Assembly: GCA_038893995.1 (NCBI GenBank)
Contig: JAWAQK010000001.1
Span: 43,776-107,775 of the forward strand
DNA length: 64,000 nucleotides
Reading direction: 5' to 3'
Origin: Candidatus Thorarchaeota archaeon
Lineage (GTDB): Archaea > Asgardarchaeota > Thorarchaeia > Thorarchaeales > Thorarchaeaceae
The translations under genes and the position numbers were made by a program. How positions within the stretch are numbered: position 1 is the stretch's first letter; the number at the start of each line of letters is the position of its first letter. Below, piece after piece: positions 9,677-63,670 of this stretch. The notes beneath the pieces are model-generated. The model had not been told where the DNA came from. It worked only from the letters and a program-made list of their open reading frames with translations, and made no database searches.

Positions 9677-9701
9677 TTAGTCCACCTGCCAGGACTTCCA
9701 C

Positions 9702-10556: not shown

Positions 10557-10825
10557 CCATAGCCCCTTTGCTAGTCAGTCCTACCGTGGCATCGACGTCT
10601 GATATAGGTAAGGCTCACCATGAATAGTGTTTGTCGTTTTTATGAGTTGTTGCGATATCCACAAGAGATCCTACCCGGATAAGACTGTCCAGACGGATAC
10701 TTCGGTCGACTTCGTCTCGCGCACCGTTTCTAATGCTCACTGGAGAGCTGCGGCAAATCATCCTTAGCTGCACAGGACAGCGTGGTATGAACAGCAGTCG
10801 GAGCCGGATTCGGACGCCATTGCCC

Positions 10826-12970: not shown

Positions 12971-13320
12971 TTTCCGTTCACCCCGACAGCCTCTCGGACT
13001 TGTTCGACTGTTGGAACCCTACCGCTCCACAAGACTGTCAGTCCCTTGCCATTCTCAACAAGAATGGTGGGCGTTGATGCAATAAAGACTTGTGCCTCTA
13101 ACAGTCTGTACTCGAAGTCAGGGTCCATCTCATCAAGATCAACTTCCTTAACAGACACACACGTTCCCTCGAGGGCCTCAGACAGTACCAGCTTTGCAGC
13201 TGGACAATTGACGCACCCCTTCTGTGTGATCAGATAGACCGTAGTCAAGTCAGCTTGTCCTCCCGACGACATCTGCAAGCACCCGGCGCCTGTATTGATC
13301 ACAGGTACTGGAGATGACAC
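12967..13320 (-). CDS. Glutaredoxin/NrdH-like redoxin.
   Basis: CVNC active site preceded by a beta-strand (TVYLITQKGCVNCP). Overlaps the nrdD start by 4 nt. An alternative start at the internal Met (13272) gives a 101-aa protein. Confidence 0.6.
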   Translation of the reverse strand: MSSPVPVINTGAGCLQMSSGGQADLTTVYLITQKGCVNCPAAKLVLSEALEGTCVSVKEVDLDEMDPDFEYRLLEAQVFIASTPTILVENGKGLTVLWSGRVPTVEQVREAVGVNGK

Positions 13321-13610
13321 CTACGGTTGAATAAAAGTCTTGGCACACCGGAATCTTCCAGCATGGAGCGCTCTGTAGGCTCTTGGAGCCCTTGCTCGAA
13401 CGGGTGTGATACATTGTCAGAGTCATGTGCCCGGTGACCCTTAAGAGCTCCTACGAGGAACACTTCCAGAATCAGGTCGGGCGAATTGCAGTCGCACCGG
13501 ATGACTCGTGACGCGAGAGGGGGACAGGACTCGCTGCACTGCTCACCCCTCCTTGCAGGATTGCGCCACAGACACCTGGACGGAATTGCTAAGACGACCG
13601 TGTTCTGACC

Positions 13611-14318
13611 ATGTCACGAAGGCAAGGAGAATCTCCAGAGAGGACAACAAATCATAATAGGTTCATGCAGAACGACGCCAACAGGTACGAGGCAATGCCC
13701 ATCTATCTGAGAGCAAGGACGCCCGCGGCTGGATGGCGAATGGTTGTAAGAAGAATCATGGAATCGGGAAACACTAGACTTGACGAGCGAGGACTGGAGA
13801 CCCTTTGGCTCGACAACGTGATGATCCACGTCCAGGATCCCTACACCGACAGACTGGCATCCGAGTACCCATTCAGCGAGGATGTGATCAAGAACAAGTA
13901 CGCAACTCAATTACTCACGCCTGACAGGTTGGACTTCGAGTATACGTACGGTGAACGACTCAATGCTTGGGGTGACGAGAGGATCAACCAGGTACAGTAT
14001 GTAATAAGGAAACTTCGAGAGAACAAGAATACCCGTCGCGCCGTGGCGACCACCTGGGACCCGAGGAGGGACCACAAGACTGACGAGGTCCCCTGCCTGA
14101 ACCATTTCGTGTTCATGACCAGAGAGGAGGAACTGGATGTCTCGGTAATGATCAGGTCCAACGACATGTTTGGTGCATGGCCGGCGAACGTCTATGGAGT
14201 GTCGGAGCTACTCAGAAAGATCTCAGCAGACACTGGACTCCGACCGGGAAGAGTCACGACCCTGTCAGTCAATGCTCACATATACAGACACGACTGGGAG
14301 AGAGCATCTACAATCTGA
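13611..14318 (+). CDS. thyA: Thymidylate synthase (ThyA family, short archaeal type).
   Basis: RRAVATTWDPRRD, the catalytic PC in EVPCLNHFVFM, and RSNDMFGAWPANVYGVSELL together match ThyA core motifs (Cys nucleophile, RSxD, GxPxN). Confidence 0.6.
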   Translation: MSRRQGESPERTTNHNRFMQNDANRYEAMPIYLRARTPAAGWRMVVRRIMESGNTRLDERGLETLWLDNVMIHVQDPYTDRLASEYPFSEDVIKNKYATQLLTPDRLDFEYTYGERLNAWGDERINQVQYVIRKLRENKNTRRAVATTWDPRRDHKTDEVPCLNHFVFMTREEELDVSVMIRSNDMFGAWPANVYGVSELLRKISADTGLRPGRVTTLSVNAHIYRHDWERASTI

Positions 14319-15639: not shown

Positions 15640-17724
15640 TTGGCTCATCTGTACAAGAGATTCGTTGGAGAGAAGGTCGTAGGTCTCCTTGAGAACATCA
15701 AGAACATCAGGAACTGTACAGTGATTGCCCACATCGATCATGGAAAGACGACCCTGACAGACTCCCTCATTGCAGCGTCGGGCCTCCTATCGGACGACCT
15801 GGCTGCGTCTGTGAAGCTCCTAGACTACGATGCCATTGAGCAACAGAGAGGCATTACTATCAAGGCATCCAGCATATCGCTGGTCCATAGGAGGAACGGA
15901 CAGGACTTCCTAATACACCTGATCGACACACCGGGCCACATAGACTTCTCATTCCACGTCACCAAGGGACTCAGGATGGCAGACGGAGCCATCGTCGTGG
16001 TTGACATAGTCGAGGGTATAATGGTACAGACTGAGACTGTGACACGTCAGGCGGCCACTGAACTCGTCAGACCAGTGTTGTTTGTCAACAAGATAGACAG
16101 ACTGATATCTGAGAAGCAATACGGAGCCCAGAGGATCGCGTCAGAGGCGGGTCGAATCGTAACAGAGTTCAACGCAATGCTAGGCAAGTATCTACCCGAT
16201 GAGATCCTCAGTGAATGGGAGGTGTCATTTCGACGAGGGTCCCTGGTCATCGGTTCGGCTCTGGACAAATGGGGAATTGACATCGTTGCACTCATGCATC
16301 GGGCCGGAAACGATCGGCAGCCCAGGAAACTCGAGAGAGCACTCATGGAGATCCTTGAGGATATCGTGTCCCTATACAGAGAGGGTCAGGAGCAGGTCCT
16401 CTCGAGAAGATATCCACTGGCCAGGTGCGTCCTAGACGCAGTCGCTGATAGCGTGCCCAGTCCGGATGTTGCCCAGTCATATAGAGTCAGACACTTCTGG
16501 CGTGGCGATACTGAGTCTGACGTTGGTAGGGCCCTGCTGAGATGCGAGAGAGATACGGGCTGCATAGTGTCCGTGGGCGATGTTCAGTCAGACAGACATG
16601 CTGGGACTGTCGCAGCCGTACGCGTGATGACTGGCAGGCTCACAAGAGGTCATGAACTACGGAATCTGAGGACGGGGAAGGTGTCAAGAACCCTGCAGGT
16701 AGGGCTATTCATGTCCAAGACCAGGGTTCCTGTCGATACAGTCCCTGCGGGAAATCTCGCATTCATCACTGGCATTTCCGAAGTGGCAATTGGCGACACG
16801 CTCGTGGAGGGGGACATGCCCAAGATCCAGCCGCTTGATGAACCTCAGTATCCAACTGAACCCGTCGTCACCTACAGTGTGGAGCCCAGGAACCTCGCGG
16901 ACCTGAAGAACATACAGGAACCAATCATGAGGATGGTCCAGTCGGACCCTTCACTCGAGTTCTATGTGAGTCCGGACTCTGGCGAAAACCTGCTCTCGGG
17001 AGCTGGCGAACTTCACATCGAGATAGTGGTGGAGAAGTTGGCCAGAGAGGGAGTGGAGATAGTCGTTGGGAAGCCGATGGTAGTACTCAAGGAGCAGATG
17101 GCCCACGATGGGGAGACCCAAGAAGCGGGAGGAGGAGATGTCAGCTGGTTCAGGGTCCGTGCCCTGCTCACACCAGAAGGACTTGAGTCACCGCCTCCCG
17201 GTACCGTATTCTCAGATGCAAGACAGGGATGCTACCTAGTGGACCAGACAGGCACCATCAACGCACAAAGTCCGGCGTTCGAGTGGGTGGTCGACGGATT
17301 CAAGACCCTGATACGTAATGGGCCTGTGTCCGGGGAGAGGATGAGACGGTTGACAATCAGGATCGAGGATGCCACGATAGTTGCAAGCACACCTGAAACA
17401 TCGTGGAGGGATGTCACACAGCCACTGATTGATGCGTCTAGGGCCAGCATCCTGAGTGGTAAGCCCATGCTGATGGAGCCATGGACAAGGCTTGAGATCA
17501 ACACCCCTGGCCAATACGTCGGTGACGTGAGTGCAATAGTAGCCCGTAGGGGAGGCAGGATAATCGATCTGACTTCGACCAGGTTCATGTTCAAGATAGA
17601 GGCCGAGATACCAGTGAGACAGTCATTCGGATTCTCGACGGAGCTGAGGACTGCGACATCAGGATGGGCGACCTGGGGCGCGCGCTCGGGCGGATATCGA
17701 CCAGTCAGCAATGATAGATCATGA
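15640..17724 (+). CDS. Divergent EF-2/EF-G-family GTPase paralog.
   Basis: G1 AHIDHGKTT, G3 DTPGH, G4 NKID and five-domain length (694 aa). Domain IV reads EDATIVASTPETSWRDV with no His at the diphthamide position. It lies 5 bp downstream of the acyltransferase gene. Confidence 0.8.
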   Translation: MAHLYKRFVGEKVVGLLENIKNIRNCTVIAHIDHGKTTLTDSLIAASGLLSDDLAASVKLLDYDAIEQQRGITIKASSISLVHRRNGQDFLIHLIDTPGHIDFSFHVTKGLRMADGAIVVVDIVEGIMVQTETVTRQAATELVRPVLFVNKIDRLISEKQYGAQRIASEAGRIVTEFNAMLGKYLPDEILSEWEVSFRRGSLVIGSALDKWGIDIVALMHRAGNDRQPRKLERALMEILEDIVSLYREGQEQVLSRRYPLARCVLDAVADSVPSPDVAQSYRVRHFWRGDTESDVGRALLRCERDTGCIVSVGDVQSDRHAGTVAAVRVMTGRLTRGHELRNLRTGKVSRTLQVGLFMSKTRVPVDTVPAGNLAFITGISEVAIGDTLVEGDMPKIQPLDEPQYPTEPVVTYSVEPRNLADLKNIQEPIMRMVQSDPSLEFYVSPDSGENLLSGAGELHIEIVVEKLAREGVEIVVGKPMVVLKEQMAHDGETQEAGGGDVSWFRVRALLTPEGLESPPPGTVFSDARQGCYLVDQTGTINAQSPAFEWVVDGFKTLIRNGPVSGERMRRLTIRIEDATIVASTPETSWRDVTQPLIDASRASILSGKPMLMEPWTRLEINTPGQYVGDVSAIVARRGGRIIDLTSTRFMFKIEAEIPVRQSFGFSTELRTATSGWATWGARSGGYRPVSNDRS

Positions 17725-17728
17725 GAGC

Positions 17729-20032
17729 TCAGGAACGTATGTAGGACCTACGGTTGAGGACCGAACCGAGATGGACCATCACTCTACGCTCCACCATCGC
17801 AACACCATCCATCATCCGGACTGCACGAGAGATATTCGAGAGCACTGCATTCATGTACGGTTGTACCCTTGTCGGCTCTCCTTGAGCCATCATCCCTATG
17901 TAGGCATTGGTTATCTTTACTAGTCCTAGCCAGTCCTCGGGAAGTAGGAATGAAGACTCAAGGAACATATCATCTGATGGAATGGTTTCGGTGTGATCCA
18001 CAGACACCTCGTACTGAACCTCAAGGGCACTTAGAAGTCGCGAGAGCATATTTGTGAACGACGTTGCAACTGAGAGAATGAACTCACGAGACTCTGAGAT
18101 CGATGAGTCTTCTGAATGACATCTTCCGAATGACACGGCAGCTTGATGCAGCAGAGGAGCCAGTTCCTGGTGATTCCTGTTCTCGAAGAAGAGTCGGATT
18201 CCACTAGCCAGCAGGGCCTGGCCCTCCCAGTATCTTGTCAGGACGGGGTCAATATCATGTACCGAGAACTGCTCAGGACTGACGATGCCACTGACTGTTT
18301 CCGTACCAAGAGGTTGGATGTTTATCTTTGCTGTAGCAAAGGCCGCCATCAGCCTACCTACATCTCTGAGTTCAGAGTTGCGCTCCACGAGACTGAGGGC
18401 CCTTCTCTTGAGTTGGAACCAGTCACCGAACATCAGAGGCACAGCGAGTGATATTCCTTCAACGATCGAGGGACTGTCAGGAGGGCACAAGTCAAGGATC
18501 ATCCTATCCAGATCAAGAATGACCCTGCGCAGTCGCTCAGGAATGAATAGTCTATGCCTCAGAGAGAGCCAGGCAATATCGTACAATGCGATTGCGGCCT
18601 CGACAAGAGCACGCGAGTCAGAGGGAAAGAGTCGCATGTAGCGCAGTAGAGATTCACTCAGGAGATCGTTCGCACGGTCATCAATCGTTTCGGACTCACA
18701 GATTGCCGCGAGGCCCAATCCAACCATGGAGCTCAGTAATGCAATCTCCAGGCATTGACCCTTGTTGAGTAGAGATGTCCTCATCTCTACAGAACGCTGA
18801 AACGACTCAACTGCGGCAGACCGAAACTCTGCAGACTCCGAGAGTAGACAGGCCCAGCCAATAGCATGCAGACAACTGGCGATCTCAGACATCATGTCGT
18901 TCTCTGGAGACTTCAGGTCGTCTGCGACTTTCTGAGCCCGGCGGAGGTAGTCGATTGCAAGTGCTGTGCCGTCATCACTTCCGGTCAGGCTGTGGGCATG
19001 GCCGAGACCTACTAGGCAGCGCAGCAATGCCATCCGCTGCTCTCTTGTCGGGTCCTCGATCGATTCATAGACTGCGAGAGCCGCGTTCAGGCGTTCTACG
19101 GCCTGGGGTATCGCCTCCCGCCACCCACCAATGAGTATCGTCGAACCTACTAGAAGATATGCTGCCGCGAGATCGCCCCTGGTCATAAGACCTGCATCCA
19201 CGCTTCTCTCGTACTCCTGCAGTGCACGGTCAGCAAGGTCACGGGCAGTCTGATAGCTCACACCTTCGTCTCGCGTCTCATTTATCGCAAGCTGGAGAGC
19301 CAGTTGAATCCGTGATGCGGGCGGGAGTTCGGAGCCCATCTCTGATTCAAGCTGTTTCAGTAGACTCCTGGAGCGATCGAAGAGTTCCAGGTCAGTAAGG
19401 ACGGAGGCGAGGTCCAGGGTGAGGTCCAGCAAGAGGTCTCTGAATCCCAGCTGTCGTGATACTGAGAGTAGCCGGTCCAGGAGTGGTTCGGCACACTCTG
19501 CAAGGCCTTCATCCATCAGGGACCTGGCCAGGTAGTGCACCTCGGCCACTGCCAACTTGGTGAAGGATATCTGGTCACGGGCGATGATCGAGTCTAGCGT
19601 ATGGAGTGTTTCGTCAGCCAGGAATGCCAAGAGGGGACGTAGACCATGCCCTAAGGAGACTGACATGGACTGGCCCAGCTCACCAAGCAGGTCAATCAGA
19701 ATTGGCAGAGCCTCAAGATCGGGAAGGTCCTCCGCCGCCGTACGTCTGTACTCATTGGTGAACCTGGTGTCCAGTAGAGATATCAGCTCTGACAGCTCCG
19801 ATGTCTTATCAAATGAGTGACGCACGATGAGTTCAAGGAACTTGTAGTTTGCAAGTGCCGGCCTTCTGAGAAGCACTTCCTCGAGGGCTCGTGCCAACTC
19901 ATGACCCAGTTCATGAGAGTCGGGGGAGAAACGTGAGATTCCTTGAAGTGCAGCGAGACCATCGTCGAGGGAGACAGATGCACACAGTAGGTCCCTCAAG
20001 ATTGTCCGAATCCTTGGATCCAAACAGTTCAC
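17729..20032 (-). CDS. Large helical-repeat (TPR/HEAT-like) hypothetical protein.
   Basis: 767 aa, Leu/Ala/Glu/Arg-rich, predicted all-alpha, no catalytic motifs. Sits 47 bp downstream of the KaiC-like pair on the same strand. Confidence 0.5.
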   Translation of the reverse strand: MNCLDPRIRTILRDLLCASVSLDDGLAALQGISRFSPDSHELGHELARALEEVLLRRPALANYKFLELIVRHSFDKTSELSELISLLDTRFTNEYRRTAAEDLPDLEALPILIDLLGELGQSMSVSLGHGLRPLLAFLADETLHTLDSIIARDQISFTKLAVAEVHYLARSLMDEGLAECAEPLLDRLLSVSRQLGFRDLLLDLTLDLASVLTDLELFDRSRSLLKQLESEMGSELPPASRIQLALQLAINETRDEGVSYQTARDLADRALQEYERSVDAGLMTRGDLAAAYLLVGSTILIGGWREAIPQAVERLNAALAVYESIEDPTREQRMALLRCLVGLGHAHSLTGSDDGTALAIDYLRRAQKVADDLKSPENDMMSEIASCLHAIGWACLLSESAEFRSAAVESFQRSVEMRTSLLNKGQCLEIALLSSMVGLGLAAICESETIDDRANDLLSESLLRYMRLFPSDSRALVEAAIALYDIAWLSLRHRLFIPERLRRVILDLDRMILDLCPPDSPSIVEGISLAVPLMFGDWFQLKRRALSLVERNSELRDVGRLMAAFATAKINIQPLGTETVSGIVSPEQFSVHDIDPVLTRYWEGQALLASGIRLFFENRNHQELAPLLHQAAVSFGRCHSEDSSISESREFILSVATSFTNMLSRLLSALEVQYEVSVDHTETIPSDDMFLESSFLLPEDWLGLVKITNAYIGMMAQGEPTRVQPYMNAVLSNISRAVRMMDGVAMVERRVMVHLGSVLNRRSYIRS

Positions 20033-20079: not shown

Positions 20080-20787
20080 TCAGCTGAGTCTGAACTCGAC
20101 CCACGCGCGCTTGGTCTCAGTCCCTCTCATTCTCTCCATCCGCACGAAGAACTTGGGAGTATCGCTAGTATCATCCACCCTGAATCTCAGGACCGCATCT
20201 GCGGAGTACGCGAAGCTGGCATACGTCTTGTCGTCATGTACCCCCTCCTCGAGAATGTACATGATACTGTGAGAACCCTGAGTCAGTCGACCGCTGAGTC
20301 TTTGCACGGCCTGAGGTAGAGCTGCAGCACTGGAACTCATGATGAGTGTCGTCAGGCTGTCAACCACGACTCTTGCAACTACAAGTTTCTCCAGCGCCTC
20401 CGTGAGGACGATTCCAAGCTCTGTTATGTCGTCGACCTTTGAGAGTGAGTAGGGACTTGTGCTCTTGACGCCCATCCGGTCCGAATACCCATCTACAAAG
20501 GTGAACATACCATTTCGCTCGTGCTTCTCGATCGGCCAACCATGTCGGCTCATGTCGTTTCGTATCACTCTGGGAGATACATCTGTCGTCACAAAGACCG
20601 CAGGGAAACCCAGCACTAGCCCCTCGGCGAGATATGCCTCGGCATACGTGGTCTTTCCAGAGCCTATCGGCCCCAGTAGCAATATCGACTGTTGAGTCAG
20701 TTGGCCAAACTCGACCAGGTCTCCTAATGTGGGGCTCACCTTGACAGGGTTGCGTTCGTCGATTCGACTATCATCTCGAGCCGTCAA
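20080..20787 (-). CDS. KaiC/RadA-like single-domain RecA-superfamily ATPase.
   Basis: Walker A LLLGPIGSGKTT. Walker B region VVVDSLTTL. 235 aa. Confidence 0.7.
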   Translation of the reverse strand: MTARDDSRIDERNPVKVSPTLGDLVEFGQLTQQSILLLGPIGSGKTTYAEAYLAEGLVLGFPAVFVTTDVSPRVIRNDMSRHGWPIEKHERNGMFTFVDGYSDRMGVKSTSPYSLSKVDDITELGIVLTEALEKLVVARVVVDSLTTLIMSSSAAALPQAVQRLSGRLTQGSHSIMYILEEGVHDDKTYASFAYSADAVLRFRVDDTSDTPKFFVRMERMRGTETKRAWVEFRLS

Positions 20788-20814
20788 TCAATTCACCTCT
20801 CGGATCTAGCTGAT

Positions 20815-21558
20815 TCAGCTGCCGGGGCTTATCTCAGTAGGCCAGACCCGAATACCCTCGTCAGTGATTCTCATGGAGTGTATCCTGGAGCTGTGCTTGG
20901 ATCCTCGGAGCTTCAATACCTCGATCGAACGGGAACGCGACGTGTCGCTTATCTTCTCGTTGTAGAGCACAATGACGCCTGATGCAAGGAAGGCTTCGAT
21001 GTCAAATACGCCCAGTCCGGTGTCCTGTGCAGGTATCTCTGATGTCAGCAGCAGGGTGGCACCTGTGCCTGTTATCTTGGAGCACATCTTGAAGAACTCT
21101 TCTCTGAGAATGTCTCTGCTCCTGAACTTGTATGCAAGGATTGATAGGGTGTCTATGACTACTCTCTTGGCATTCACCTTCTTCATGTTGCTCAGGATGA
21201 TTGACACTAGTGCCGACAGGTCGAAGCTCGGATACTCCTCCACCATGACGGGAGAGGGACGTGACGGTGACAGGTCTACGATCGCCAGCATACCCTGGTT
21301 CTCTAGTTTCTCGAGGTCCATGCCAAATCTCAACATGTTGCGCTTTATGAGGTGAGGGGGCTCCTCGAGAGTGACAAGCACGCCAGGTTCTCCGTATTCG
21401 GTGGCTCCCTTATACAGGAACTGGTTTGCGAGAATGCTCTTCCCAGTACCTGCCTTTCCTGCAATGAGTATGGTGTCACCTCTGGGAAAACCTCCCTCTA
21501 TCAGTTCGTCGAGTCCCGGGATTCCGGTCTTGACTCTATCAATTTGGTAGCCGGTCAT
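20815..21558 (-). CDS. KaiC/RadA-like single-domain RecA-superfamily ATPase.
   Basis: TGIPGLDELIEGGFPRGDTILIAGKAGTGKS (Walker A) and VVIDTLSIL (Walker B). The start is either the internal Met (MTGYQIDRV, 21558) or 21588. Confidence 0.7.
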   Translation of the reverse strand: MTGYQIDRVKTGIPGLDELIEGGFPRGDTILIAGKAGTGKSILANQFLYKGATEYGEPGVLVTLEEPPHLIKRNMLRFGMDLEKLENQGMLAIVDLSPSRPSPVMVEEYPSFDLSALVSIILSNMKKVNAKRVVIDTLSILAYKFRSRDILREEFFKMCSKITGTGATLLLTSEIPAQDTGLGVFDIEAFLASGVIVLYNEKISDTSRSRSIEVLKLRGSKHSSRIHSMRITDEGIRVWPTEISPGS

Positions 21559-21910
21559 CTGGAACACCTCTACGTTTTCTGTATCCAAGGATCATCCTGA
21601 GGATTGACTCTGGTTCGGGTATGCCGGTTATGGAGGCACCTCCGATCATTATCGTCGGAGCAGCGAGTACCCCATAGTACTGTGCGACTTCTGGCTCTTG
21701 GACCACATCAATCTCTCGCAGAGTGAACATGTCAGTATCAAACTCGCCAAGTATGTCTAGCAGTACCTGTTTAGCTCGCGGACAGAAGGGGCATTCATCG
21801 TGGCTAAAGAAGAGGACCTCAACCTTCGAGGATTCCTTCCCATCTTTGGAGCACCCTTCTTCATCAGACGGAGCCAACGAGACGCACTCCCTGTCCTGTG
21901 TGACCTCCAA
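21539..21910 (-). CDS. Thioredoxin/glutaredoxin-like protein (CPFC active site).
   Basis: VLFFSHDECPFCPRAKQVL ... PTIMIGG is a thioredoxin-fold pattern. 123 aa with an acidic N-terminal extension. Same operon as Roadblock and the KaiC-like genes. Confidence 0.55.
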   Translation of the reverse strand: MEVTQDRECVSLAPSDEEGCSKDGKESSKVEVLFFSHDECPFCPRAKQVLLDILGEFDTDMFTLREIDVVQEPEVAQYYGVLAAPTIMIGGASITGIPEPESILRMILGYRKRRGVPDDRLPN

Positions 21911-21948
21911 CTGTGGAGCTGTGCTCTATTGAATGTTATTGCGTCGGC

Positions 21949-22335
21949 CTAACGACGATATGCCATCATCTTTCGTATCTTGGTCGCCACTTTCCCGAGC
22001 GACCGAGAGTGATATCTGAGATGCCGAGGCATCACTGCGGCCAAGAGGAAGGACTGCCCACTGTCGACCAATATCTTGCGGACGACAAACTTTCCCTCCG
22101 AACAACGAATGGAGATCTCGGAGAGCTCCCCAAGCAGCAGTTCGTTCCGGAGACGCTCAACGGAGGAGGCCACATAGCCAGACATTGCAGCAACGATGTC
22201 ACGGTTTGTGGTGGGGGATGCTGAGGATGCCATGAGTAGGCCGTCATCTCGCGCAAGGATTGATGCGACATAGCCTCCGTTTCTGACCATGTCATCAAGC
22301 ATCTCGGTCAATGCCCTGTAGTCAGGTCTTTCCAT
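21949..22335 (-). CDS. Roadblock/LC7 (MglB-like) domain protein.
   Basis: 128 aa. GGYVASILARDDGLLMAS...AAMSGYVASSVERL...SEISIRCSEGKFVVRKILVDSGQSFLLAAVM matches the Roadblock/LC7 alpha-beta-alpha pattern. Confidence 0.7.
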   Translation of the reverse strand: MERPDYRALTEMLDDMVRNGGYVASILARDDGLLMASSASPTTNRDIVAAMSGYVASSVERLRNELLLGELSEISIRCSEGKFVVRKILVDSGQSFLLAAVMPRHLRYHSRSLGKVATKIRKMMAYRR

Positions 22336-22482
22336 GTGAATCGCTCCGTCATCCCTAATCGATTGCGCATTTTTCTTTTAAAGGATGAGGTCACATCCCC
22401 TGCTCCAGTATCTTGCAGTTGCACTCACAACATAGTTTTAAGTTAGGCTCCAAATGTGAGTCAGACGAGGATGTGATGTCGT

Positions 22483-23031
22483 TTGACTGCCGAATATAGA
22501 TTCAAGGTGGTCATGCTCGGTGATGGCGCGGTAGGGAAGACTGCGCTCACCAACATGTTCACGCAGGGCCACTTCATCTCCGAATACAAACGGACGATTG
22601 GGTCAGACTTTGCAGTCAAACGTGTCTCAGTACCCCAGAGGAATGCACAGGTCACTCTCCAGGTATGGGACTTGGCAGGACAACCACGATTCGAGATAGT
22701 CAGGCAATCTTTCTATCGTGGAGCAAGAGGAGGATTGCTTGTCTACGATGTCACACGACGCAGGACATTCCTGAACCTCGATCACTGGAGACAGGAAACT
22801 AAGAACAGTCTGAGTCGCGAAATACCCCTGGTCGTGGTCGCCAACAAGGTGGATCTGACAGGCGCACGCGTCGTGACGAGGGAGGAGGGAGAACAGTATG
22901 CTGCCAAGAGCGGACTCATATATGTGGAGGCAAGTGCACTCACAGGCCAGAACGTAGAGGATGCATTCGTGGAACTATGTGTCGAGATGATCGACGAGTC
23001 AAAGTCGGAAGCGAGATCTCAGACAGGTTGA
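22483..23031 (+). CDS. Rab/Ras-like small GTPase (Asgard type, no C-terminal prenylation motif).
   Basis: G1 GDGAVGKT. Switch I YKRTIGSDF (Rab-like TIGxDF). G3 WDLAGQ. G4 NKVDL. G5 EASA. 182 aa. Confidence 0.8.
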   Translation: MTAEYRFKVVMLGDGAVGKTALTNMFTQGHFISEYKRTIGSDFAVKRVSVPQRNAQVTLQVWDLAGQPRFEIVRQSFYRGARGGLLVYDVTRRRTFLNLDHWRQETKNSLSREIPLVVVANKVDLTGARVVTREEGEQYAAKSGLIYVEASALTGQNVEDAFVELCVEMIDESKSEARSQTG

Positions 23032-24179
23032 CCCTTCAAGAGGCCTAGATGCTTCTTGCACTGCCAGACGATATAGAAGATGGTCTTGTCCTGCAACACC
23101 TCACTGCCATATTGTGACATCAGGGACTCGAACCTGCGTACCAGATCAACCCTTCTCTCGCCTGCAGTATCGCTCTCGATCTCTCGCAGCAGTGCCTGGA
23201 GGGGCTCAATCATTGCAGTCCTGTCGACGATTTCCCACCGCCTTATTGCTCCGGTGGACTCACAGGTCAGGAACTCGTTCGAATCTGCCACCCATTCTAG
23301 AGAGTCCGGTTCGCCCCGTGTCATTGTCTCGGCCTGCCTAGTGAAATCACTTGTCCGCCACAGGAAGATGTTCTTGTCAGCAGACCCAGACGCAATAAGG
23401 GACCCATCGTGGTTGAATCCCACACAGCGGACCTCTTGTGTATGTCCTGTGAGTGTCTTCTCATGTCTGAGCTGCCCGTCTGAGGCGTCCCAGACCATGA
23501 CCGTCTGATCAGAAGATGCCGAGGCCACCCTGGTACCGTCCCTGGAAAAGCGCACCTGATGCAGTGCAGATCTGTGTTCTTGGAGCCACTCTATCCTCTC
23601 ACCAGTCGTCGGATCCCAGAGACCAATCATCGCATCGACACCACCGGACACTATCCGATCTCCACGAGGATCCCAGTCGCAGGACACTACGTATAGAGAA
23701 TGGCCCTTGAGCTGTCTCAGTGGCTTGGAACTGCCGATGTCCCACACCATGAGGGTCGTATCGCCACTCGATGACACTAACCTATCGCAGTCGGGAGAGA
23801 AGGCGAGCGACAATATGGGATACCGATGACCCTCGAGACGACATATCAACTCTGCACTCCTGACGTCCCAGACCTTGATAACCCTGTCAACACCACCAGA
23901 CGCTATCACATCACTCCGGGGGCTGAATGCAAGGGCTGTGCACAGGAAGTCGTCTGTGATTCGCTGGACCTCTTGGCAGTCTCTCGCATCGTACAGACGT
24001 ATTGTTCGGTCCTGATGAGCAGCAGCGAACATGCGTCCCACTCTGTTGATGGTGAAACGACGAATGATGTCGTCAGCAGTTTCCGCCTCGGGTCTTAGCA
24101 GCCTAGGACGAAGAAACAATGATGGTACGGACTCCGTCATCTTGCTCACCAGAGTGATTGTCATCGTCTCAAGCAGCAT
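23019..24179 (-). CDS. WD40 repeat (7-bladed beta-propeller) protein with a C-terminal helical tail.
   Basis: Seven GH...WD-type repeats (VWDVRS, MVWDIGS, IGLWDPTT, VMVWDASD, IFLWRTSD, IRRWEIVD). The C-terminal roughly 70 aa are non-WD. Starts 82 bp downstream of the second Rab-like gene on the same strand. Confidence 0.8.
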   Translation of the reverse strand: MLLETMTITLVSKMTESVPSLFLRPRLLRPEAETADDIIRRFTINRVGRMFAAAHQDRTIRLYDARDCQEVQRITDDFLCTALAFSPRSDVIASGGVDRVIKVWDVRSAELICRLEGHRYPILSLAFSPDCDRLVSSSGDTTLMVWDIGSSKPLRQLKGHSLYVVSCDWDPRGDRIVSGGVDAMIGLWDPTTGERIEWLQEHRSALHQVRFSRDGTRVASASSDQTVMVWDASDGQLRHEKTLTGHTQEVRCVGFNHDGSLIASGSADKNIFLWRTSDFTRQAETMTRGEPDSLEWVADSNEFLTCESTGAIRRWEIVDRTAMIEPLQALLREIESDTAGERRVDLVRRFESLMSQYGSEVLQDKTIFYIVWQCKKHLGLLKGQPV

Positions 24180-24261
24180 ATCTAAAAAGAGTTGTGAGGA
24201 TGCGATGGGCCCCTCAAGTCAGTATGGTATGGGTGGCTGGTGGTCCGAAGATGAGCATGGC

Positions 24262-24834
24262 TCAGAGAGTACTCTGGCCAATCGACTCGACCATCATGAT
24301 GATGAGCTCAATGAATGCCTTCTCCACGTTGTGTCCGGTCTTGGCAGATGTTTCAAGGAAGACCGTGCTGACCCCACTTTCTCTGAGCGCCTGTGTGAAC
24401 TTCTCACCCTCCTGCGTCGTGACTATCGATCCCTTCATGGCAGGATTGTCCTTGAACTGGTCCCGGAGATCAGTCTTGTTGCCGATGACTACAATAGGAA
24501 TGGTCTTGCCTGTGTTCGCCCAGCACTCCTCAAGCCAGTTGGGAAGATTATCAAATGACGAACGTTCCACAGTCGAGTATACAGCCAATGCTCCCTGGGC
24601 ACCCTTGTAGAAGGTTGATCGTACGTTCTTGAAGTGAGCCTGTCCAGCAAGATCCCATATCTGGATGTGCACCTCTGTGCCACTCTCAAGTGCCAGTTTT
24701 TTCACTGCGAAATCGGCGCCGATGGTGACCATGTATGAGGCCTTGAAACCTTCGCCCATGTAGGTCCGACGGAGCGAAGTCTTACCTACTGAGCCGTCGC
24801 CCATGAGAACTATCTTGAACAATGCTCTCGGCAT
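24262..24834 (-). CDS. Rab/Ras-like small GTPase.
   Basis: G1 GDGSVGKT. TIGADF. WDLAGQ. GNKTDL. ETSAKTGHNVEKAF. 190 aa. Confidence 0.8.
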   Translation of the reverse strand: MPRALFKIVLMGDGSVGKTSLRRTYMGEGFKASYMVTIGADFAVKKLALESGTEVHIQIWDLAGQAHFKNVRSTFYKGAQGALAVYSTVERSSFDNLPNWLEECWANTGKTIPIVVIGNKTDLRDQFKDNPAMKGSIVTTQEGEKFTQALRESGVSTVFLETSAKTGHNVEKAFIELIIMMVESIGQSTL

Positions 24835-57887: not shown

Positions 57888-60113
57888 CTAACCAGTACGC
57901 TTGTAGACGAATCGAGACCAGTTGCTAATGGTCGGAACTTCAGCTGGCAGATTCTTCCTCTTTCGGATGTCGGCTATCTTCGACTCACTCAGATGGGACG
58001 GTAGCGGTTCGAACCCGCGGAACTCGTATCCAAAGAAGCTTCTGCCTGACGTCGCGCCACGAAACTCATCCGCGATACCGATGGTCTCTGCGGTAGGCAA
58101 GGTCCCTCTGACTGTTACTGTATCCTCCTCTGCATCGATGGTGAGAATCTGTCCCCTGTGGCCGGTCAAGACCTTGATCACCTGCCCCTGAGTGTCTGTA
58201 GGGGTCTTGATGTCCACGTTCAGGACGGGTTCGAACAGCACAGGGGCTCCGGTCAGAAACGACATGTTGAGTGCCGCTCCAGTCATCGTTGCAACTTCGC
58301 TGTAACCCGTGTGGGCAGGATCAGTGTGTATTGTGGCATCTGTAATGACTGCTTTTACGCCCATGACGGGCTCGCGTGCCAGTGGACCCCCATCAATGAA
58401 TTCCCTGAACGTCGCCTGGACATACGGAAAGATCCGATCAAATCGCTGCACTCCAGTCATTGCGTCAATGAGCATCGACGTCTCGTATATGTCAATGATC
58501 TTTCGGGCCTCCTTCGGGTCCCATCCTGCCTCTGCACGAAGTATCTCTGCCCTGTCCTTTGCGTTCTGTTCCGCAGTGATCTTCTTCTTGCGAATTAGCT
58601 CGAGAGTCTTCTCGTCCAGTGGCTCGAGGTACATCTTGATGCGGTTGTGACCGTTTGGTGACTTGGTGTGGAACTCCTCGCCGCGCTGAGTCATGCGTTC
58701 CCTGTAAACTATGATGGGCTCTGAGACCTTGATCTTGACCTGCTCGTCGATTCGCTTGGTCAATATCTCGATCTGAAGCGGGTCAATACCATCAAGGCGA
58801 TACTCTCCTGACTCCTTGTCGTGAACGAACCGAGCAGTAGGATCAGCCATGATCCACTTGGAAACGACCTCGCCAAGTCTGGCTATGTCCTGTGGGTCCA
58901 CGGGCTTTATGCTCCTGCTAACTACCGGCTCACAGACGTACTCTATGGCCTCGAAGCCGGGGATATCAGAGTCTGGGTCAACAAAAGACTCACCCGAGGG
59001 ACACATGAATCCAAAGATCGAGAACAGGTTGCCTGCAGGTACTTCGTCAATGTCAAGGATATCAGTTATCTCCTGGACACCAAGCCTGCGCACTCGGGCG
59101 TTCTGTTTCATATTGACTAGTCTGATCTCCTGACCTGACCTCAGGGTGCCCGAGAAGAGACGACCAATGAGGGTGGGCCTCTTGCTCTTGGGATCTACGA
59201 ATATCTTCGTTATCATACCGACAAGGGGTCCCTTCGGATCGCAGTTCAATAGTGCCTGACCCGCAGGACTATTCAGGTCACCTCTCCATATTCGCGGAAT
59301 CTTGTACTTCTGGGCCTCCCTGGGGTTTGGCAGGTGCTTGACTATCATCTCGAGTAGGGCATCGTCAAGCGGTAAGTTCTCCCTGAGCCATCTGTCGTCG
59401 CCAGACTGATACTTCTCAAAGACGACCATAGGATTGACGTTCTTCCTCCTGAGGACGTTGGACGTGAAGGCCCATCCAGTCTTGGCGCTACCTATGGCAA
59501 CACTGCCTGCCTGGAAGCTCACCTGCCAGTCCTTTGCATGCTCGGGCGGTGCCACCTTTCTGATCAGCTCGTTGACCTTGGCAATGATCGCATCAATACG
59601 TTCTGATACTTTCTTGGGTGGTAGCTTCAGCTCATTGATTAGTCTGTCGACCTTGTTGACGAAAAGGACTGGTTTGCAACCCTCACCACCCACTGAGAGA
59701 CGGATGTTTGTTTCAGTCTGGGTCATGACACCCTCGAGTGCGTCCACCAGCAGAACAACACCATCACTGGCACGCAACGCGCGTGACACCTCGCCAGTGA
59801 AGGACAGGTGACCTGGCGTGTCCGAGAGCTGAACTAGGTACTCCTCTCCGTCGATCTCAAAGTTCAGCAGCACTACGGATGTGAATATCGTGATACCTCG
59901 GGCCTTCTCTTCCTCATCACTGTCAGTGAGTAGGGCCTGACCAGCCTGTGCATCGCTCATGAGACCTGCTGCACGCAGAAGATAGTCTGACGTAGTCGTC
60001 TTGCCATGATCAATATGTGCACTGATCGATATTATCCGCTTGTGCTCAAAGTCGTCAGACTTGATGAGATTCTTGATGGCCTCAGGATCCTTGATCTTGA
60101 CCAATGTGTTCAC
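57888..60113 (-). CDS. fusA: Translation elongation factor 2 (aEF-2), the canonical-type paralog.
   Basis: AHIDHGKTT, DTPGH, NKVDR. Five-domain layout. Domain IV reads DATIHTDPAHTGYSEV. No in-frame ATG upstream of the G-domain. A GTG start at 60113 gives a typical roughly 30-aa lead before G1. The ORF track runs to 60182, also from GTG. Confidence 0.8.
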   Translation of the reverse strand: MNTLVKIKDPEAIKNLIKSDDFEHKRIISISAHIDHGKTTTSDYLLRAAGLMSDAQAGQALLTDSDEEEKARGITIFTSVVLLNFEIDGEEYLVQLSDTPGHLSFTGEVSRALRASDGVVLLVDALEGVMTQTETNIRLSVGGEGCKPVLFVNKVDRLINELKLPPKKVSERIDAIIAKVNELIRKVAPPEHAKDWQVSFQAGSVAIGSAKTGWAFTSNVLRRKNVNPMVVFEKYQSGDDRWLRENLPLDDALLEMIVKHLPNPREAQKYKIPRIWRGDLNSPAGQALLNCDPKGPLVGMITKIFVDPKSKRPTLIGRLFSGTLRSGQEIRLVNMKQNARVRRLGVQEITDILDIDEVPAGNLFSIFGFMCPSGESFVDPDSDIPGFEAIEYVCEPVVSRSIKPVDPQDIARLGEVVSKWIMADPTARFVHDKESGEYRLDGIDPLQIEILTKRIDEQVKIKVSEPIIVYRERMTQRGEEFHTKSPNGHNRIKMYLEPLDEKTLELIRKKKITAEQNAKDRAEILRAEAGWDPKEARKIIDIYETSMLIDAMTGVQRFDRIFPYVQATFREFIDGGPLAREPVMGVKAVITDATIHTDPAHTGYSEVATMTGAALNMSFLTGAPVLFEPVLNVDIKTPTDTQGQVIKVLTGHRGQILTIDAEEDTVTVRGTLPTAETIGIADEFRGATSGRSFFGYEFRGFEPLPSHLSESKIADIRKRKNLPAEVPTISNWSRFVYKRTG

Positions 60114-60686
60114 CTTGGAATTACTTCGACAACCCCCATCACACAACAGGCCAGCTGCGAAGAAGTCTGGCGGGGGAACCACGTGGGCGTGGCACTTGGA
60201 GCGACGTCCAGACTATCCAATAAAAGATTATCGTCATGACTCGAGGAATTCAGGACGGCTCCAGTCGCGAGAGGCCATATGTCGTTTCTACGACCATGAG
60301 ACATGACTGCAGAGCACTCACTGAATAGGAACACATAATCTAGAGTGGTCCGACATATGGCCGCAGGTTTAGATGTATGCGGGACAGTGACCACCAGAGT
60401 GGAGCGACCCGCACCTGTCGTTCTCGCCGGGAGGGAAGCAGACTTGACCAACAGGAAGTATACGTCCAGTAAGGACTACGGGTCGTATCTCCGTCGGAGG
60501 AGACTTATAACTTACCTATAAAGATATTCTTCTGAGCATTGGGGGAACGATCTGTCGCAAAATCGAGGAGCCACTCAAGACAGTTTGGAAGTATCGGCAC
60601 GAGTCAGGGACCCCAACTCGAGAACGATTCTGGAGGCCTAGCTGAGCTGAGGCTGCGAGAAGGACATCACAAAACGAACAGTTGAA

Positions 60687-60820: not shown

Positions 60821-60875
60821 CTTGCGCAGCGAGTATGCGCATCGACAATCAGCTGCGGGGACGAGAACCGGAACT

Positions 60876-61610
60876 ATGCCAAGATGGACAGAGCTGACGC
60901 ACCTGAGTTTTGTCAAGGCGATATCAGGCACCAGGGTCGCCATTCTTCCCACTGGATCCCTGGAGGCCCACGGAAATCACCTGCCTCTTGGTACCGACAC
61001 AATACTGCCGGAGTACCTTGCTGACAGGGTGAGCCGAAGGACGCATGCGCTGGTACTGCCGCCCATCCCATTCGGCGACAGCTGGGCCCTTGAGGGGTTT
61101 GCCGGTACCGTGACTGTAAGGCACCAGACGCTGGTCGAGTTCTACTGCGAGGTCATGGAGAGCATCTTCAGGAACGGCCTGAGCAGAATCGTCGTCCTGA
61201 ACGGTCACGGGGGTAACACGTCTGCGATAGAGTCTGCTGCGAAGACTGCCACCCAGGACAACGACAGGATCGTGGTGATAGTCAACTGGTGGGTGGACCT
61301 CGCCAAGGAAACCAGACGCGAGGTCCTAGAGACCCCGGAGGGACACGCTGCTGAGGACGAAACTTCCGAACTCATGTATGTCAGGCCGGACCTCGTCGAC
61401 ATGACTGACCTGAAGTCAAGTACAGTACTGATGAGATACCGGGTGATATCAGCAGAGCATAGGAATGACCTCTATCGGTACGCTGCAAGTGGTGATCCAG
61501 GGAAGGCCAACCCGGAAAAAGGAAAAAGGATTCTCGAGTCTGCCGAGGACGAACTGGTGCATCTCGTGGAGGATCTTGAACGCGACCTCCTGCCCGTTGA
61601 GAGAGGCTAG
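60876..61610 (+). CDS. Creatininase-family amidohydrolase.
   Basis: VAILPTGSLEAHGNHLPLGTD and VLNGHGGN match creatininase-family metal-binding motifs. Start at the internal ATG 60876, so the ORF no longer overlaps the tRNA. Confidence 0.65.
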   Translation: MPRWTELTHLSFVKAISGTRVAILPTGSLEAHGNHLPLGTDTILPEYLADRVSRRTHALVLPPIPFGDSWALEGFAGTVTVRHQTLVEFYCEVMESIFRNGLSRIVVLNGHGGNTSAIESAAKTATQDNDRIVVIVNWWVDLAKETRREVLETPEGHAAEDETSELMYVRPDLVDMTDLKSSTVLMRYRVISAEHRNDLYRYAASGDPGKANPEKGKRILESAEDELVHLVEDLERDLLPVERG

Positions 61611-62440
61611 AGACCCACCTTGAAGATCAGGGCATCACGGAGTATTCTTTGAAACATCCTCACGAGGTTCTTTCCCTCTGTGGCTACGGTCGGAAAGACC
61701 GGATGGGCCTCCAGGCCGAGCAGACTCATCATGTAGTCGATTGGAAGCGCGTTTGGCAGGTCCCTCTTGTTGAGTGCCACGACGAGGGGTATGGTCGCCA
61801 TCCTGTCGGTCCCCAGAGCCATTCTCAGCTCCTCTATGGATGCTATGTTCTCATTCATGGACTCAGGACGGGAATCAGCCATGAATATTATGCCATCTGC
61901 GTCCTTCAGAACGAAGATACGATTCTGAGCGTGTCGTCTCTGACCAGGGACCGTGAACACATCAAAGACCACTCTCTCGTTGGCGGACACGGGTACGAAA
62001 TCGAAGAAGGTCGTACGTCCGAGCTCATCCATCACTTCGACCAGTCGACTCTTGGAGAGTGTCCTCAGATTTGCAAAGAGCCACCTCAACGCGGTTGTCT
62101 TTCCCGACAGTGAGGGCCCGTAGAAGACGATCTTGATATGGAGCCGGCCAGCGCTGTCGCGCTTCAACAACCTTCCTGGGACCAGCTCAGCTGTGCTCAT
62201 TGGCTCAATACCAGCAGTCTGAGCCCTTGCCATCGTGGCAGATACGTCCATGATATCTTCATGTGTTGCGACCAGTGTACCAGCAGGGGTCAGGGGAGTT
62301 CTTGCCTCGGGAGAGACTGACGGAGAAGACTCTACAACATGGGTCTCTCCAGGGGGAGAACTGGTCTCTACACTAGTTTCTTCGGGCTTGGCCTCGGGGG
62401 CACGTCTCCTGCCCAACCGGGCCGCCAACCAACGAATCAC
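61607..62440 (-). CDS. mglA: MglA-family small GTPase with a Pro/Ser/Glu-rich N-terminal extension.
   Basis: KIVFYGPSLSGKTT (compare MglA KIVYYGPGLCGKTT), TTFFDFVPVS, TVPGQ, NKRDLPNA, all MglA hallmarks. An N-terminal extension of about 110 aa of low-complexity sequence follows if the start is 62440. Alternative starts are at 62251 and 62200. Confidence 0.7.
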   Translation of the reverse strand: MIRWLAARLGRRRAPEAKPEETSVETSSPPGETHVVESSPSVSPEARTPLTPAGTLVATHEDIMDVSATMARAQTAGIEPMSTAELVPGRLLKRDSAGRLHIKIVFYGPSLSGKTTALRWLFANLRTLSKSRLVEVMDELGRTTFFDFVPVSANERVVFDVFTVPGQRRHAQNRIFVLKDADGIIFMADSRPESMNENIASIEELRMALGTDRMATIPLVVALNKRDLPNALPIDYMMSLLGLEAHPVFPTVATEGKNLVRMFQRILRDALIFKVGL

Positions 62441-62542
62441 GGCGCTCCTCTCCGTAACCTAAAACGGATGGCCATGTTTTAAAACTTCGTCAGATAGTGT
62501 CCGAGTGATGTTTATCAGTACGGAGGCCTAGCGGGTAGCACC

Positions 62543-63670
62543 GTGGACGAGAAGAGCGTTCGAGATCTTGTGGCCAGGTCCTTTCCCAGCCTGGCAGAGA
62601 TGACGTACCTCAACAATGCATCGACAGGGATACCTCCTGTCGAGATGATCAATGCCGTGAACGCCTACCTGAGCGAGCGCATGATGGCGAAAGACCTGAT
62701 GGAGTATACCATTGAGAAGATGACAAGCGTCCGAGAGAGGCTTGCACGTCTCCTAGGGGGGCGTCCCGAGAACTACGCACTCATGACCAGCACATCGGAT
62801 GGCCTCAACGCTGCAGCTCACAGCATATCGTATCGGCCCGGTAGCAACATTGTCATCAGTGATCTAGAGTTCCCATCCAACTACATCCCCTGGCAACACG
62901 CATGTCGGTTGTATGGTACGGAACTGCGTGTGGTGAGGTCCAAGAACGGAGCAGCGCCCGAAGAAGACTACATCCGGCTCATAGACGACAAAACCACAAT
63001 TGTAGCAGTCAGTCACGTTCAGTTCGCATCTGGCTACAGATCAGACCTGTCCCTGCTGAGTGAGTCTGTTCATCAGGTCGGCGGCTATCTCGTGGCAGAC
63101 ATCATTCAGTCTGCGGGGTGTGTCTGCATCGATCTTGAGCGACTCGGGGTGGACTTCGCGGCTGCACAGGCTGCAAAGTGGCTGATCGGGCCCATTGGAG
63201 CAGGGTTTCTCTACGTCAGCGATCGAGCCATCGAGACCGTGACACCGCGTTATGCGAGCTGGTGGGGAATGGAAGACCTAGAGGACTTCTCATTTCGGGA
63301 ACGCAGGATGTTGCCTGACGCACGGAGATTCCAGACCGGATCATTGCCAATGATGCCCCTTGTAGGATTCGATGCATGTCTTCACGTGCTGTCCACCATC
63401 TCAATCGATACCGTTTCGAATCTGGCAAATGATAGAGCGGACTATCTGAGGAGCAGGTTACATGAGGAGGGTGTGAGCCACTATGACTTCGGCAGAGAAC
63501 ACAACTCGACGATCGTCTCTCTTCAGGTTTCAGATGCCGAAGAGGTCGTCAAGAGATTGGCTGAGGAACGCATCTACTGTTCTGCAAGACAGGGTCGACT
63601 GAGGGTCTCGCCTCATTTCTATAACACACGTGGTGATATAGACCGGCTCATTGAACATCTGGTGATGTGA
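62543..63670 (+). CDS. Class V aminotransferase-fold PLP-dependent enzyme (cysteine desulfurase / epimerase-like).
   Basis: 375 aa. AVSHVQFASGYRSDLSLL...GGYLVADIIQSAG...AAQAAKWLIGPIGAGFLYV is an AAT-V pattern with a candidate PLP-Lys. Confidence 0.65.
   Translation: MDEKSVRDLVARSFPSLAEMTYLNNASTGIPPVEMINAVNAYLSERMMAKDLMEYTIEKMTSVRERLARLLGGRPENYALMTSTSDGLNAAAHSISYRPGSNIVISDLEFPSNYIPWQHACRLYGTELRVVRSKNGAAPEEDYIRLIDDKTTIVAVSHVQFASGYRSDLSLLSESVHQVGGYLVADIIQSAGCVCIDLERLGVDFAAAQAAKWLIGPIGAGFLYVSDRAIETVTPRYASWWGMEDLEDFSFRERRMLPDARRFQTGSLPMMPLVGFDACLHVLSTISIDTVSNLANDRADYLRSRLHEEGVSHYDFGREHNSTIVSLQVSDAEEVVKRLAEERIYCSARQGRLRVSPHFYNTRGDIDRLIEHLVM

Follow-up and report, generated by a model that had tools for sequence, protein, structure and literature searches.

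We analyzed a 64,000-nucleotide stretch of DNA from a Candidatus Thorarchaeota archaeon (contig JAWAQK010000001.1, hereafter the window; 53.8% G+C) and found that its minus strand encodes, at positions 61607–62440, a small GTPase of the MglA family that carries a conserved N-terminal extension. Judged by its sequence and its structural model, this GTPase is the Thorarchaeota orthologue of Group-1 (MglA1-type) MglA, with its own arginine finger, R142, and a catalytic glutamine, Q167. The interpretation that we favor, and consider reasonably probable, is that of a Group-1 MglA switch with a conserved three-part extension, which would be regulated in trans by a Roadblock dimer and tethered through its N-terminus. 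The open reading frame (ORF) of 277 codons is the longest at this position in the list of ORFs and their translations, and NCBI annotates an identical 277-residue product on contig JAWBPJ010000009.1 (GCA_038825165.1). In a protein cluster search the best matches all carried the label Candidatus Thorarchaeota, and the homologues fell into more than 100 clusters at 90% identity, with lengths of 266–313 residues and 77–100% coverage of the query. Scanning a single genome for each GTDB species yielded 72 Thorarchaeota-type loci with a full-length orthologue, 67 of which were distinct and informative for the start codon and near neighbors and 47 of which had at least 8 kb of upstream sequence. Upstream of the gene, the window itself extends for no more than 1,560 bp. 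The gene and the elements of its G domain are as follows.

61607–62440, minus strand: complete gene of the MglA-type GTPase with N-terminal extension (277 residues; GTG start at 62438–62440, TAG stop at 61607–61609)
61610–62149, minus strand: Group-1 MglA-type G domain, residues 98–277 (phmmer against the PDB, E 4e-34; top 14 Foldseek matches all MglA)
62096–62119, minus strand: G1/P-loop GPSLSGKT, residues 108–115, read from the sequence and invariant in alignments A1 and A2
62012–62017, minus strand: G2 Arg142-Thr143, intrinsic arginine finger beside the switch I threonine, aligned with the DRT/ERT of MglA
61940–61954, minus strand: G3 TVPGQ (T163–Q167), read from the sequence, with Thr for the usual Asp and the catalytic Gln167; a Group-1 signature according to PMC4316618
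61760–61771, minus strand: G4 NKRD for guanine specificity, residues 224–227, within NKRDLPNA and invariant in A1 and A2

When the PDB was searched with phmmer, MglA of Thermus thermophilus ranked first (E 4.4e-34) and MglA of Myxococcus xanthus reached approximately 1e-31, while the best Arf protein scored 2.5e-8; identity of the G domain to bacterial MglA was 35–38%. The protein was modeled with AlphaFold2 (AF2) from a family alignment of 119 sequences; this model superseded a poor earlier one, made from an alignment of 30 sequences, whose predicted local distance difference test (pLDDT) was 62.8. Alignment A1 likewise holds 30 sequences. The final model had a mean pLDDT of 78.7 and a predicted template modeling score (pTM) of 0.71, with the G domain mostly above 85. 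Foldseek placed 14 MglA chains first (template modeling score normalized to the target, TM(target), 0.75–0.90; root-mean-square deviation (rmsd) 1.7–3.1 Å), and the best four matches were MglB-bound structures in the GTP state (TM(target) 0.86–0.90, rmsd 1.7–2.2 Å), the closest superpositions being those on 3t12 (1.7 Å) and 6izw (2.2 Å). Group 1 MglA is defined by G1, an arginine beside the G2 threonine, a TVPGQ G3 and G4 (Wuichet and Søgaard-Andersen 2014, PMC4316618). R142-T143 aligns with the Arg-Thr pair of the T. thermophilus and M. xanthus proteins and shows no variation in A1 and at least 90% conservation in A2. The family consensus of G3 is TVAGQ, in which conservation is at least 90% for T163, V164 and Q167 and complete for G166 in both alignments. 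The phmmer alignment with the MglA structures 3T12 and 6HJH has no gap between the P-loop and G2, and therefore the insertion between G1 and G2 typical of bacterial MglA is present. The preliminary description had already recognized an MglA-like core from the P-loop stretch KIVFYGPSLSGKTT, TVPGQ and NKRDLPNA; all 3 motifs are present, and the searches bear this identification out. MglA1-type GTPases have been recognized in Asgard archaea before (bioRxiv 10.1101/2024.02.28.582541; PMC10933270).

Public databases suggest another identity, since in Pfam Arf (PF00025), with a weak match of 36.6 bits, is alone in passing its gathering score, the names given to homologues include 'ADP-ribosylation factor-like' and, for many orthologues in the JGI database, 'signal recognition particle receptor subunit beta', and the N-terminal motif is helix-like. 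NCBIfam offers only a generic small_GTP domain, below its cut-off. An Arf or SR-beta type is nevertheless extremely improbable and was rejected: G3 reads TVPGQ and not DxxGQ, an intrinsic arginine is found, the signal recognition particle receptor beta family (PF09439, SRPRB) reaches 18.5 bits against a cut-off of 25, the MglA E-value is approximately 26 orders of magnitude ahead of that of Arf, and TM(target) is 0.86–0.90 for MglA against at most 0.8. To our knowledge, Pfam apparently has no dedicated MglA model, and the Arf label can be attributed to this. What the protein does share with Arf and the Asgard ArfR is an N-terminal basic/hydrophobic element on a small GTPase that could bind membrane, and membrane binding of ArfR requires its N-terminal amphipathic helix (bioRxiv 10.1101/2024.02.28.582541). 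However, the Arf helix adjoins the G domain directly and toggles together with the interswitch, whereas the basic motif of the Thorarchaeota protein lies approximately 85 residues away from the G domain, beyond a disordered linker of 22–57 residues.

The extension is open to the objection that it may not be translated at all, the true start being one of the internal methionines M64, M70 or M81 and the open frame further upstream having arisen by chance. Its sequence is compositionally biased and mostly predicted to be disordered, the start codon is not ATG, and one gene caller settled on a product shortened to 269 residues (P0001). Comparison of the orthologous loci gave this objection almost no credence. 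A Shine-Dalgarno-like sequence precedes the start codon:

62445–62453, minus strand: Shine-Dalgarno-like GGAGAGGAG, 4 nt before the GTG start, identified from the sequence and from conservation in orthologous loci

In 65 of the 67 distinct loci the start is preceded, at a distance of 3–16 nt, by a motif of the GGAG/GAGG/GGTG type, typically GGAGAG(N)GG. The start codon is TTG in 58 of the 67, all beginning TTG-TCN-GTN-TTC; GTG is used in the window, where it sits at the consensus Val codon, and in 2 other loci, and ATG in 1. In none of the full-length orthologues is the frame interrupted, although the linker varies between 22 and 57 residues; the N-terminal motif and the block preceding the G domain are conserved at the protein level, and in the window the other 2 same-strand frames hold 4–6 stops. 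None of the 3 internal methionines is conserved in A1. A start at an internal methionine, which the preliminary description had left to be checked, was thus rejected on account of the conserved frame, N-terminal motif, Shine-Dalgarno sequence and start codon, and comparative evidence indicates that the extension is real and translated from a conserved near-cognate start. Because the near-cognate start is conserved, gene callers place the N-terminus inconsistently, as in P0001. A near-cognate start kept behind a strong Shine-Dalgarno sequence may also indicate tuned or low translation.

The G domain begins at approximately residue 98, which leaves an extension of some 97 residues. The preliminary description had announced a disordered extension of about 110 residues rich in Pro, Ser, Glu and Thr; the extension is genuine and largely disordered, and these residues make up 41% of it versus 21% of the G domain, but its length was overestimated. 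It has 3 parts:

62402–62440, minus strand: N-terminal polybasic/hydrophobic motif (M)IRWLAARLGRRR, defined from alignments, consensus M-S-V-F-R-R-L-x-x-R-x-K-K
62288–62401, minus strand: variable acidic Pro/Ser/Thr/Glu-rich linker, residues 14–51, predicted to be disordered, defined by orthologue comparison and AF2
62150–62287, minus strand: conserved segment preceding the G domain (pre-G segment), residues 52–97, approximately 45 residues with the consensus P.P.GTLVAS.E..ID.E.T...A..A.I.PQ..AEIVPG..LKRD

Among orthologues the N-terminal motif has a median net charge of +5 over 14 residues, and AF2 predicts a short helix at residues 2–8 with a pLDDT of approximately 59. We describe it as polybasic/hydrophobic and not as an amphipathic helix because its helical hydrophobic moment (0.57) is not above that of shuffled controls, 30% of shuffled peptides reaching the same value. 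The linker is unalignable across orthologues, with a median net charge of −4 and 54% Pro, Ser, Thr and Glu, and the pLDDT is below 50 for residues 10–58. In the pre-G segment short helices are predicted at residues 60–63, 66–75 and 83–86, and the pLDDT is 68–80 for residues 60–97; T69, A73, A76, I78, E85, P88, G89, R94 and D95 are invariant among the 30 sequences of A1, and a KRD..GR.H segment precedes strand beta1 of the G domain. A pTM of 0.71, reached although one fifth of the chain is disordered, suggests that residues 60–97 are placed against the G domain, and the helical pre-G segment probably packs on it. The extension alone had no match in Pfam or the PDB, and a hidden Markov model of the pre-G block found no relative among approximately 4,400 neighboring ORFs, including the zinc-ribbon protein of Heimdall-type loci described below. 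In a HMMER search of 1.84 billion representative sequences, the entire Thorarchaeota family formed one 50% cluster (P0036), and no other match covered residues 1–88. A secreted or transmembrane extension was rejected, as there is no hydrophobic stretch. By these alignments the three-part architecture appears to be phylum-wide in Thorarchaeota, and it is undescribed as far as the literature was searched. What we describe is a known family in an architectural variant that is conserved and lineage-specific, and its members are already in public databases under generic names.

Around the GTPase gene the window is free of Roadblock genes for 39 kb on the downstream and 1.5 kb on the upstream side, in agreement with the preliminary description, which had noted the lack of an adjacent MglB. 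Among the related loci a Roadblock gene occurs within 3 kb of the orthologue in only 2 of 72, and for this reason we regard the gene as a conserved orphan. A coupled mglB within four genes is a typical, although not obligatory, trait of Group 1; here the nearest conserved Roadblock gene is 7 genes (approximately 7 kb) off. This 120-residue Robl_LC7 gene lies 6.5–8.5 kb upstream on the same strand in 45 of the 47 loci with sufficient upstream sequence, separated from the GTPase gene by a metallo-beta-lactamase (MBL) hydrolase gene, four coenzyme A (CoA)-biosynthesis genes and one unknown gene, and in strain SMTZ1-45 it is the crystallized Thor-RB (PDB 7F8M, E 6.6e-70). The search for further Roadblock genes that had been proposed, made here in relatives, found one in nearly all loci with sufficient upstream sequence, though not an adjacent one. 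The window ends inside the MBL hydrolase gene, the second gene of the conserved upstream block, and extrapolation from relatives would place a Thor-RB-type gene approximately 5.5 kb past the window end, near 69.5 kb. An exact 44-mer from the window end had no match in metagenome_contigs, the exact product of the Aminotran_5 gene, which neighbors the GTPase gene, also gave no record, and the one contig that carries the identical GTPase stops 1.2 kb upstream of the gene. In individual loci the Thor-RB gene occupies positions 2590–2952 (L001), 2490–2852 (L003) and 2524–2913 (L020), approximately 7 kb upstream of the GTPase gene. Directly before it stands a gene for a large protein of approximately 1,270 residues with no Pfam match on record, whose C-terminal transmembrane helix is followed by a conserved, short tail in the cytoplasm that ends ...FDPKEFFGV, and this gene order suggests that Thor-RB may work with the neighboring membrane protein.

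Within the window, Roadblock/LC7 is represented by a single gene at 21949–22335, 40 kb away and beside a Rab-like GTPase gene (22483–23031), as had been noted. The encoded Robl_LC7 protein has only weak likeness to LAMTOR2 and Thor-RB, and its divergent neighbor is the orthologue of the crystallized Thor-Rab (7EZB, E 7.6e-79). The order Ras-like/WD40/Thor-Rab/Roadblock/thioredoxin-like/two KaiC-like/large protein is kept in three Thorarchaeota genomes, and in the complete genome CP070761.1 the cluster lies approximately 40–45 kb from the MglA-type gene, as in the window. Since this distant Roadblock gene has its own conserved GTPase neighbor, nothing suggests a swap. The preliminary description had proposed partner swapping between GTPase and Roadblock families or an MglA acting with a different regulator; this proposal lost its support because orphan Group-1 MglAs are documented, a Thor-RB orthologue is found upstream in relatives and the distant Roadblock belongs to its own cluster. 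By gene order, the orphan state is normal for the Thorarchaeota MglA family and does not point to partner swapping.

For GTP hydrolysis, Group-1 MglAs supply the Arg and Gln themselves, and a Roadblock (MglB) dimer repositions these two residues (PMC4316618). Orphans among them include SofG, the Bdellovibrio MglA and a set of 59 (PMC4316618), and MglB has been reported to be a GAP (GTPase-activating protein) for the orphan SofG in trans (PMC13408092). We propose the following working for the Thorarchaeota protein. Translation from the near-cognate start, GTG in the window, behind the strong Shine-Dalgarno sequence would yield a protein with the three-part extension. The G domain would switch between GTP- and GDP-bound states and hydrolyze GTP using R142 and Q167, a Roadblock/MglB-type dimer encoded elsewhere would stimulate hydrolysis in trans, the nearest candidate being the Thor-RB-type gene, and the basic N-terminal motif would tether the switch, via the flexible linker, to an anionic membrane or an acidic partner. 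The pre-G segment may modulate the switch.

Several points weigh against this proposal. The function of the GTPase is read from sequence and model, the packing of the pre-G segment on the G domain is drawn from pLDDT and pTM, and membrane binding by an amphipathic helix at the N-terminal motif is weakly supported. CoA-biosynthesis genes separate the Roadblock gene at approximately 7 kb from the GTPase gene, and the linkage may be mere phylum-wide synteny. PMC4316618 reported no stimulation of SofG by MglB, in conflict with the later PMC13408092. In addition, switch II reads QRRH where bacterial MglA has QVFY, and the beta2-beta3 loop falls 4 residues short of the bacterial length; in complexes of the bacterial proteins MglB touches both of these regions, and because of these 2 changes an MglB-type interface may be lost. 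Switch II Q-R-R-H-A (residues 168–172, 61925–61939) is invariant in the Thorarchaeota family and reads Q-A/T/S-R-H-K in Heimdall-type relatives.

Instead of a Roadblock dimer acting in trans, regulation could occur in cis or through a non-Roadblock protein, with the extension replacing the functions of MglB so that no MglB-like partner is needed; we regard this as unlikely, though by no means negligible. In bacteria helix alpha5, with K181 and K185, and the beta2-beta3 loop form an allosteric pocket to which MglB binds with its D/E-rich C-terminal helix (PMC6785124), and in the Thorarchaeota protein the acidic stretch or a conserved helix of the extension could, for example, fill this pocket. 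The basic residues R261, R265, R268 and K274 of alpha5 are nearly invariant, R268 aligning with M. xanthus K185 (PMC6785124), and most orthologues have a Glu-rich patch after the basic motif. Thor-RB is a minimal Roadblock of 120 residues, and in published AlphaFold 3 modeling of a Thorarchaeota pair the C-terminal helix was reported not to bind (PMC13408092). The altered switch II points in the same direction, as does the lack of an adjacent Roadblock gene in 70 of 72 Thorarchaeota loci and in Heimdall-type loci. The Heimdall-type relatives, however, have no extension and are orphans too, and hence the orphan status is independent of the extension. The shortened beta2-beta3 loop is itself part of the pocket, and the many Roadblock paralogues of Asgard genomes could act in trans. 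A combination is also conceivable but quite improbable, in which the basic N-terminal motif would anchor the protein at the membrane, an acidic or helical element of the extension would occupy the alpha5/interswitch pocket in cis in place of the MglB C-terminal helix, and Thor-RB would serve only as a GAP platform. If this were true, Thor-RB would have its natural partner in the MglA-type GTPase, and not in Thor-Rab, and this GTPase would correspond in archaea to the polarity module of bacteria.

The extension of the favored trans-regulated switch would reach a membrane or an acidic partner; it might instead bind a cytoskeletal or scaffold polymer, not membrane, and position other machinery, which would make the protein a landmark-binding switch like SofG. 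SofG is an orphan Group-1 MglA paralogue of 239 residues, compared with 195 for MglA, that binds the bactofilin BacP (PMC4316618, PMC4085708). The Thorarchaeota protein is likewise an orphan Group-1 member with sequence beyond its G domain (277 residues), and like SofG and the Bdellovibrio MglA it combines the Group-1 catalytic type with the lack of a coupled mglB, SofG too being longer than MglA (PMC4316618). It differs from them in that its host is an Asgard archaeon; it is not known to have a partner such as BacP or RomR, and its extension is not known to be related in sequence to theirs. Searches of Pfam, the PDB, the representative library and the neighboring ORFs found no similarity of the extension to anything outside its own family, and no cytoskeletal gene is found among the conserved neighbors. 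We therefore give this explanation little probability.

Comparison with relatives places the favored switch among known systems. With Group 1 MglA of M. xanthus and T. thermophilus (3T12, 6IZW) it shares the fold, P-loop, G2 Arg-Thr, TVPGQ, NKxD and the spacing between G1 and G2; it differs in being archaeal and in its extension of approximately 97 residues, its QRRH switch II, its shorter beta2-beta3 loop, the KRD..GR.H segment in front of beta1 and the lack of an adjacent mglB. We compare it with the Asgard 'MglA1' group of Klinger et al. (2016), as that group is cited in bioRxiv 10.1101/2024.02.28.582541, as the same G-domain type. The Heimdall-type relatives (187 residues) are 50–55% identical over the G domain, including its KRD..GR.H.KIVFYGPSLSGKTT start, but lack the extension, and their gene follows that of a zinc-ribbon/coiled-coil protein of approximately 495 residues. 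This protein, with N-terminal zinc-ribbon/B-box-like cysteine motifs and weak coiled-coil-like matches, precedes the 187-residue relative in every Heimdall-type locus (L077–L083, at approximately 8110–10564). A divergent upstream gene in these loci encodes a Rab-like GTPase with a C-terminal extension of approximately 370 residues, and in these loci the same G domain may have another set of partners. The homologue of a sister lineage (locus L075; P0121, 248 residues) shows a basic N-terminal motif and a linker rich in Pro, but the Thorarchaeota-specific helical block is missing. Two further GTPase genes (7323–8528 and 12912–13784) flank that MglA-type gene within 3 kb, their G domains following N-terminal regions of approximately 120–130 residues that have no Pfam match and may be longin/Roadblock-like, and a SNAP/TPR-like gene abuts the 3′ end of the MglA-type gene. 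Most of the next-best homologues in the library of 1.84 billion sequences (P0128–P0269) consist of an N-terminal MglA-type G domain with long C-terminal extensions, 300–760 residues in total, and such multidomain MglA-like proteins are apparently a large and little described class.

Small GTPases and Roadblock/longin platforms of Asgard archaea are studied as forerunners of the eukaryotic membrane-traffic and polarity switches, and the literature uses Thor-Rab and Thor-RB as the MglA/MglB-like pair of Thorarchaeota (PMC10933270; PMC13408092 and its preprint). Both come from the same organism group as the protein described here, and the Thor-RB orthologue lies approximately 7 kb upstream of its family. 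In contrast to Thor-Rab, which is Rab-like and has a conserved Roadblock neighbor of its own, this protein is a much closer MglA homologue, and the Thor-RB gene stands in the same conserved block as the MglA-type gene. The main use of the finding is as a pointer to this closer homologue and to its linkage with Thor-RB in relatives. It yields concrete GTPase–Roadblock pairs but not a new kind of system, and the mechanism, drawn from sequence comparison, remains a proposal. The separate Thor-Rab/Roadblock cluster (20080–24834) and its neighbors in the window comprise the following genes:

24262–24834: Ras-like GTPase
23019–24179: WD40 propeller
22483–23031: Thor-Rab orthologue
21949–22335: LAMTOR2-like Roadblock
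21539–21910: glutaredoxin/thioredoxin-like protein
20815–21588 and 20080–20787: two KaiC-like ATPases
17729–20032: helical-repeat protein of 767 residues

Around the MglA-type GTPase gene, a creatininase-family gene (60822–61610) is convergent, an Aminotran_5 gene (62543–63670) is divergent at 102 bp upstream, and a tRNA-Gln gene and an aEF-2 paralogue lie downstream. We call this gene order conserved because all 67 informative loci have a divergent Aminotran_5 gene and 39 of the 67 a convergent creatininase-family gene. The GTPase and creatininase-family genes overlap by 4 bp at 61607–61610, where the palindrome CTAG provides both TAG stops, and the same overlap (offset −3) is seen in many orthologous loci. 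The window holds two genes of the EF-2 family (57888–60182 and 15640–17724). The one near the GTPase gene, which keeps its synteny with that gene in most related loci, scores 669.7 bits, under the aEF-2 equivalog cut-off of 738, and is probably the Asgard EF-2 paralogue.

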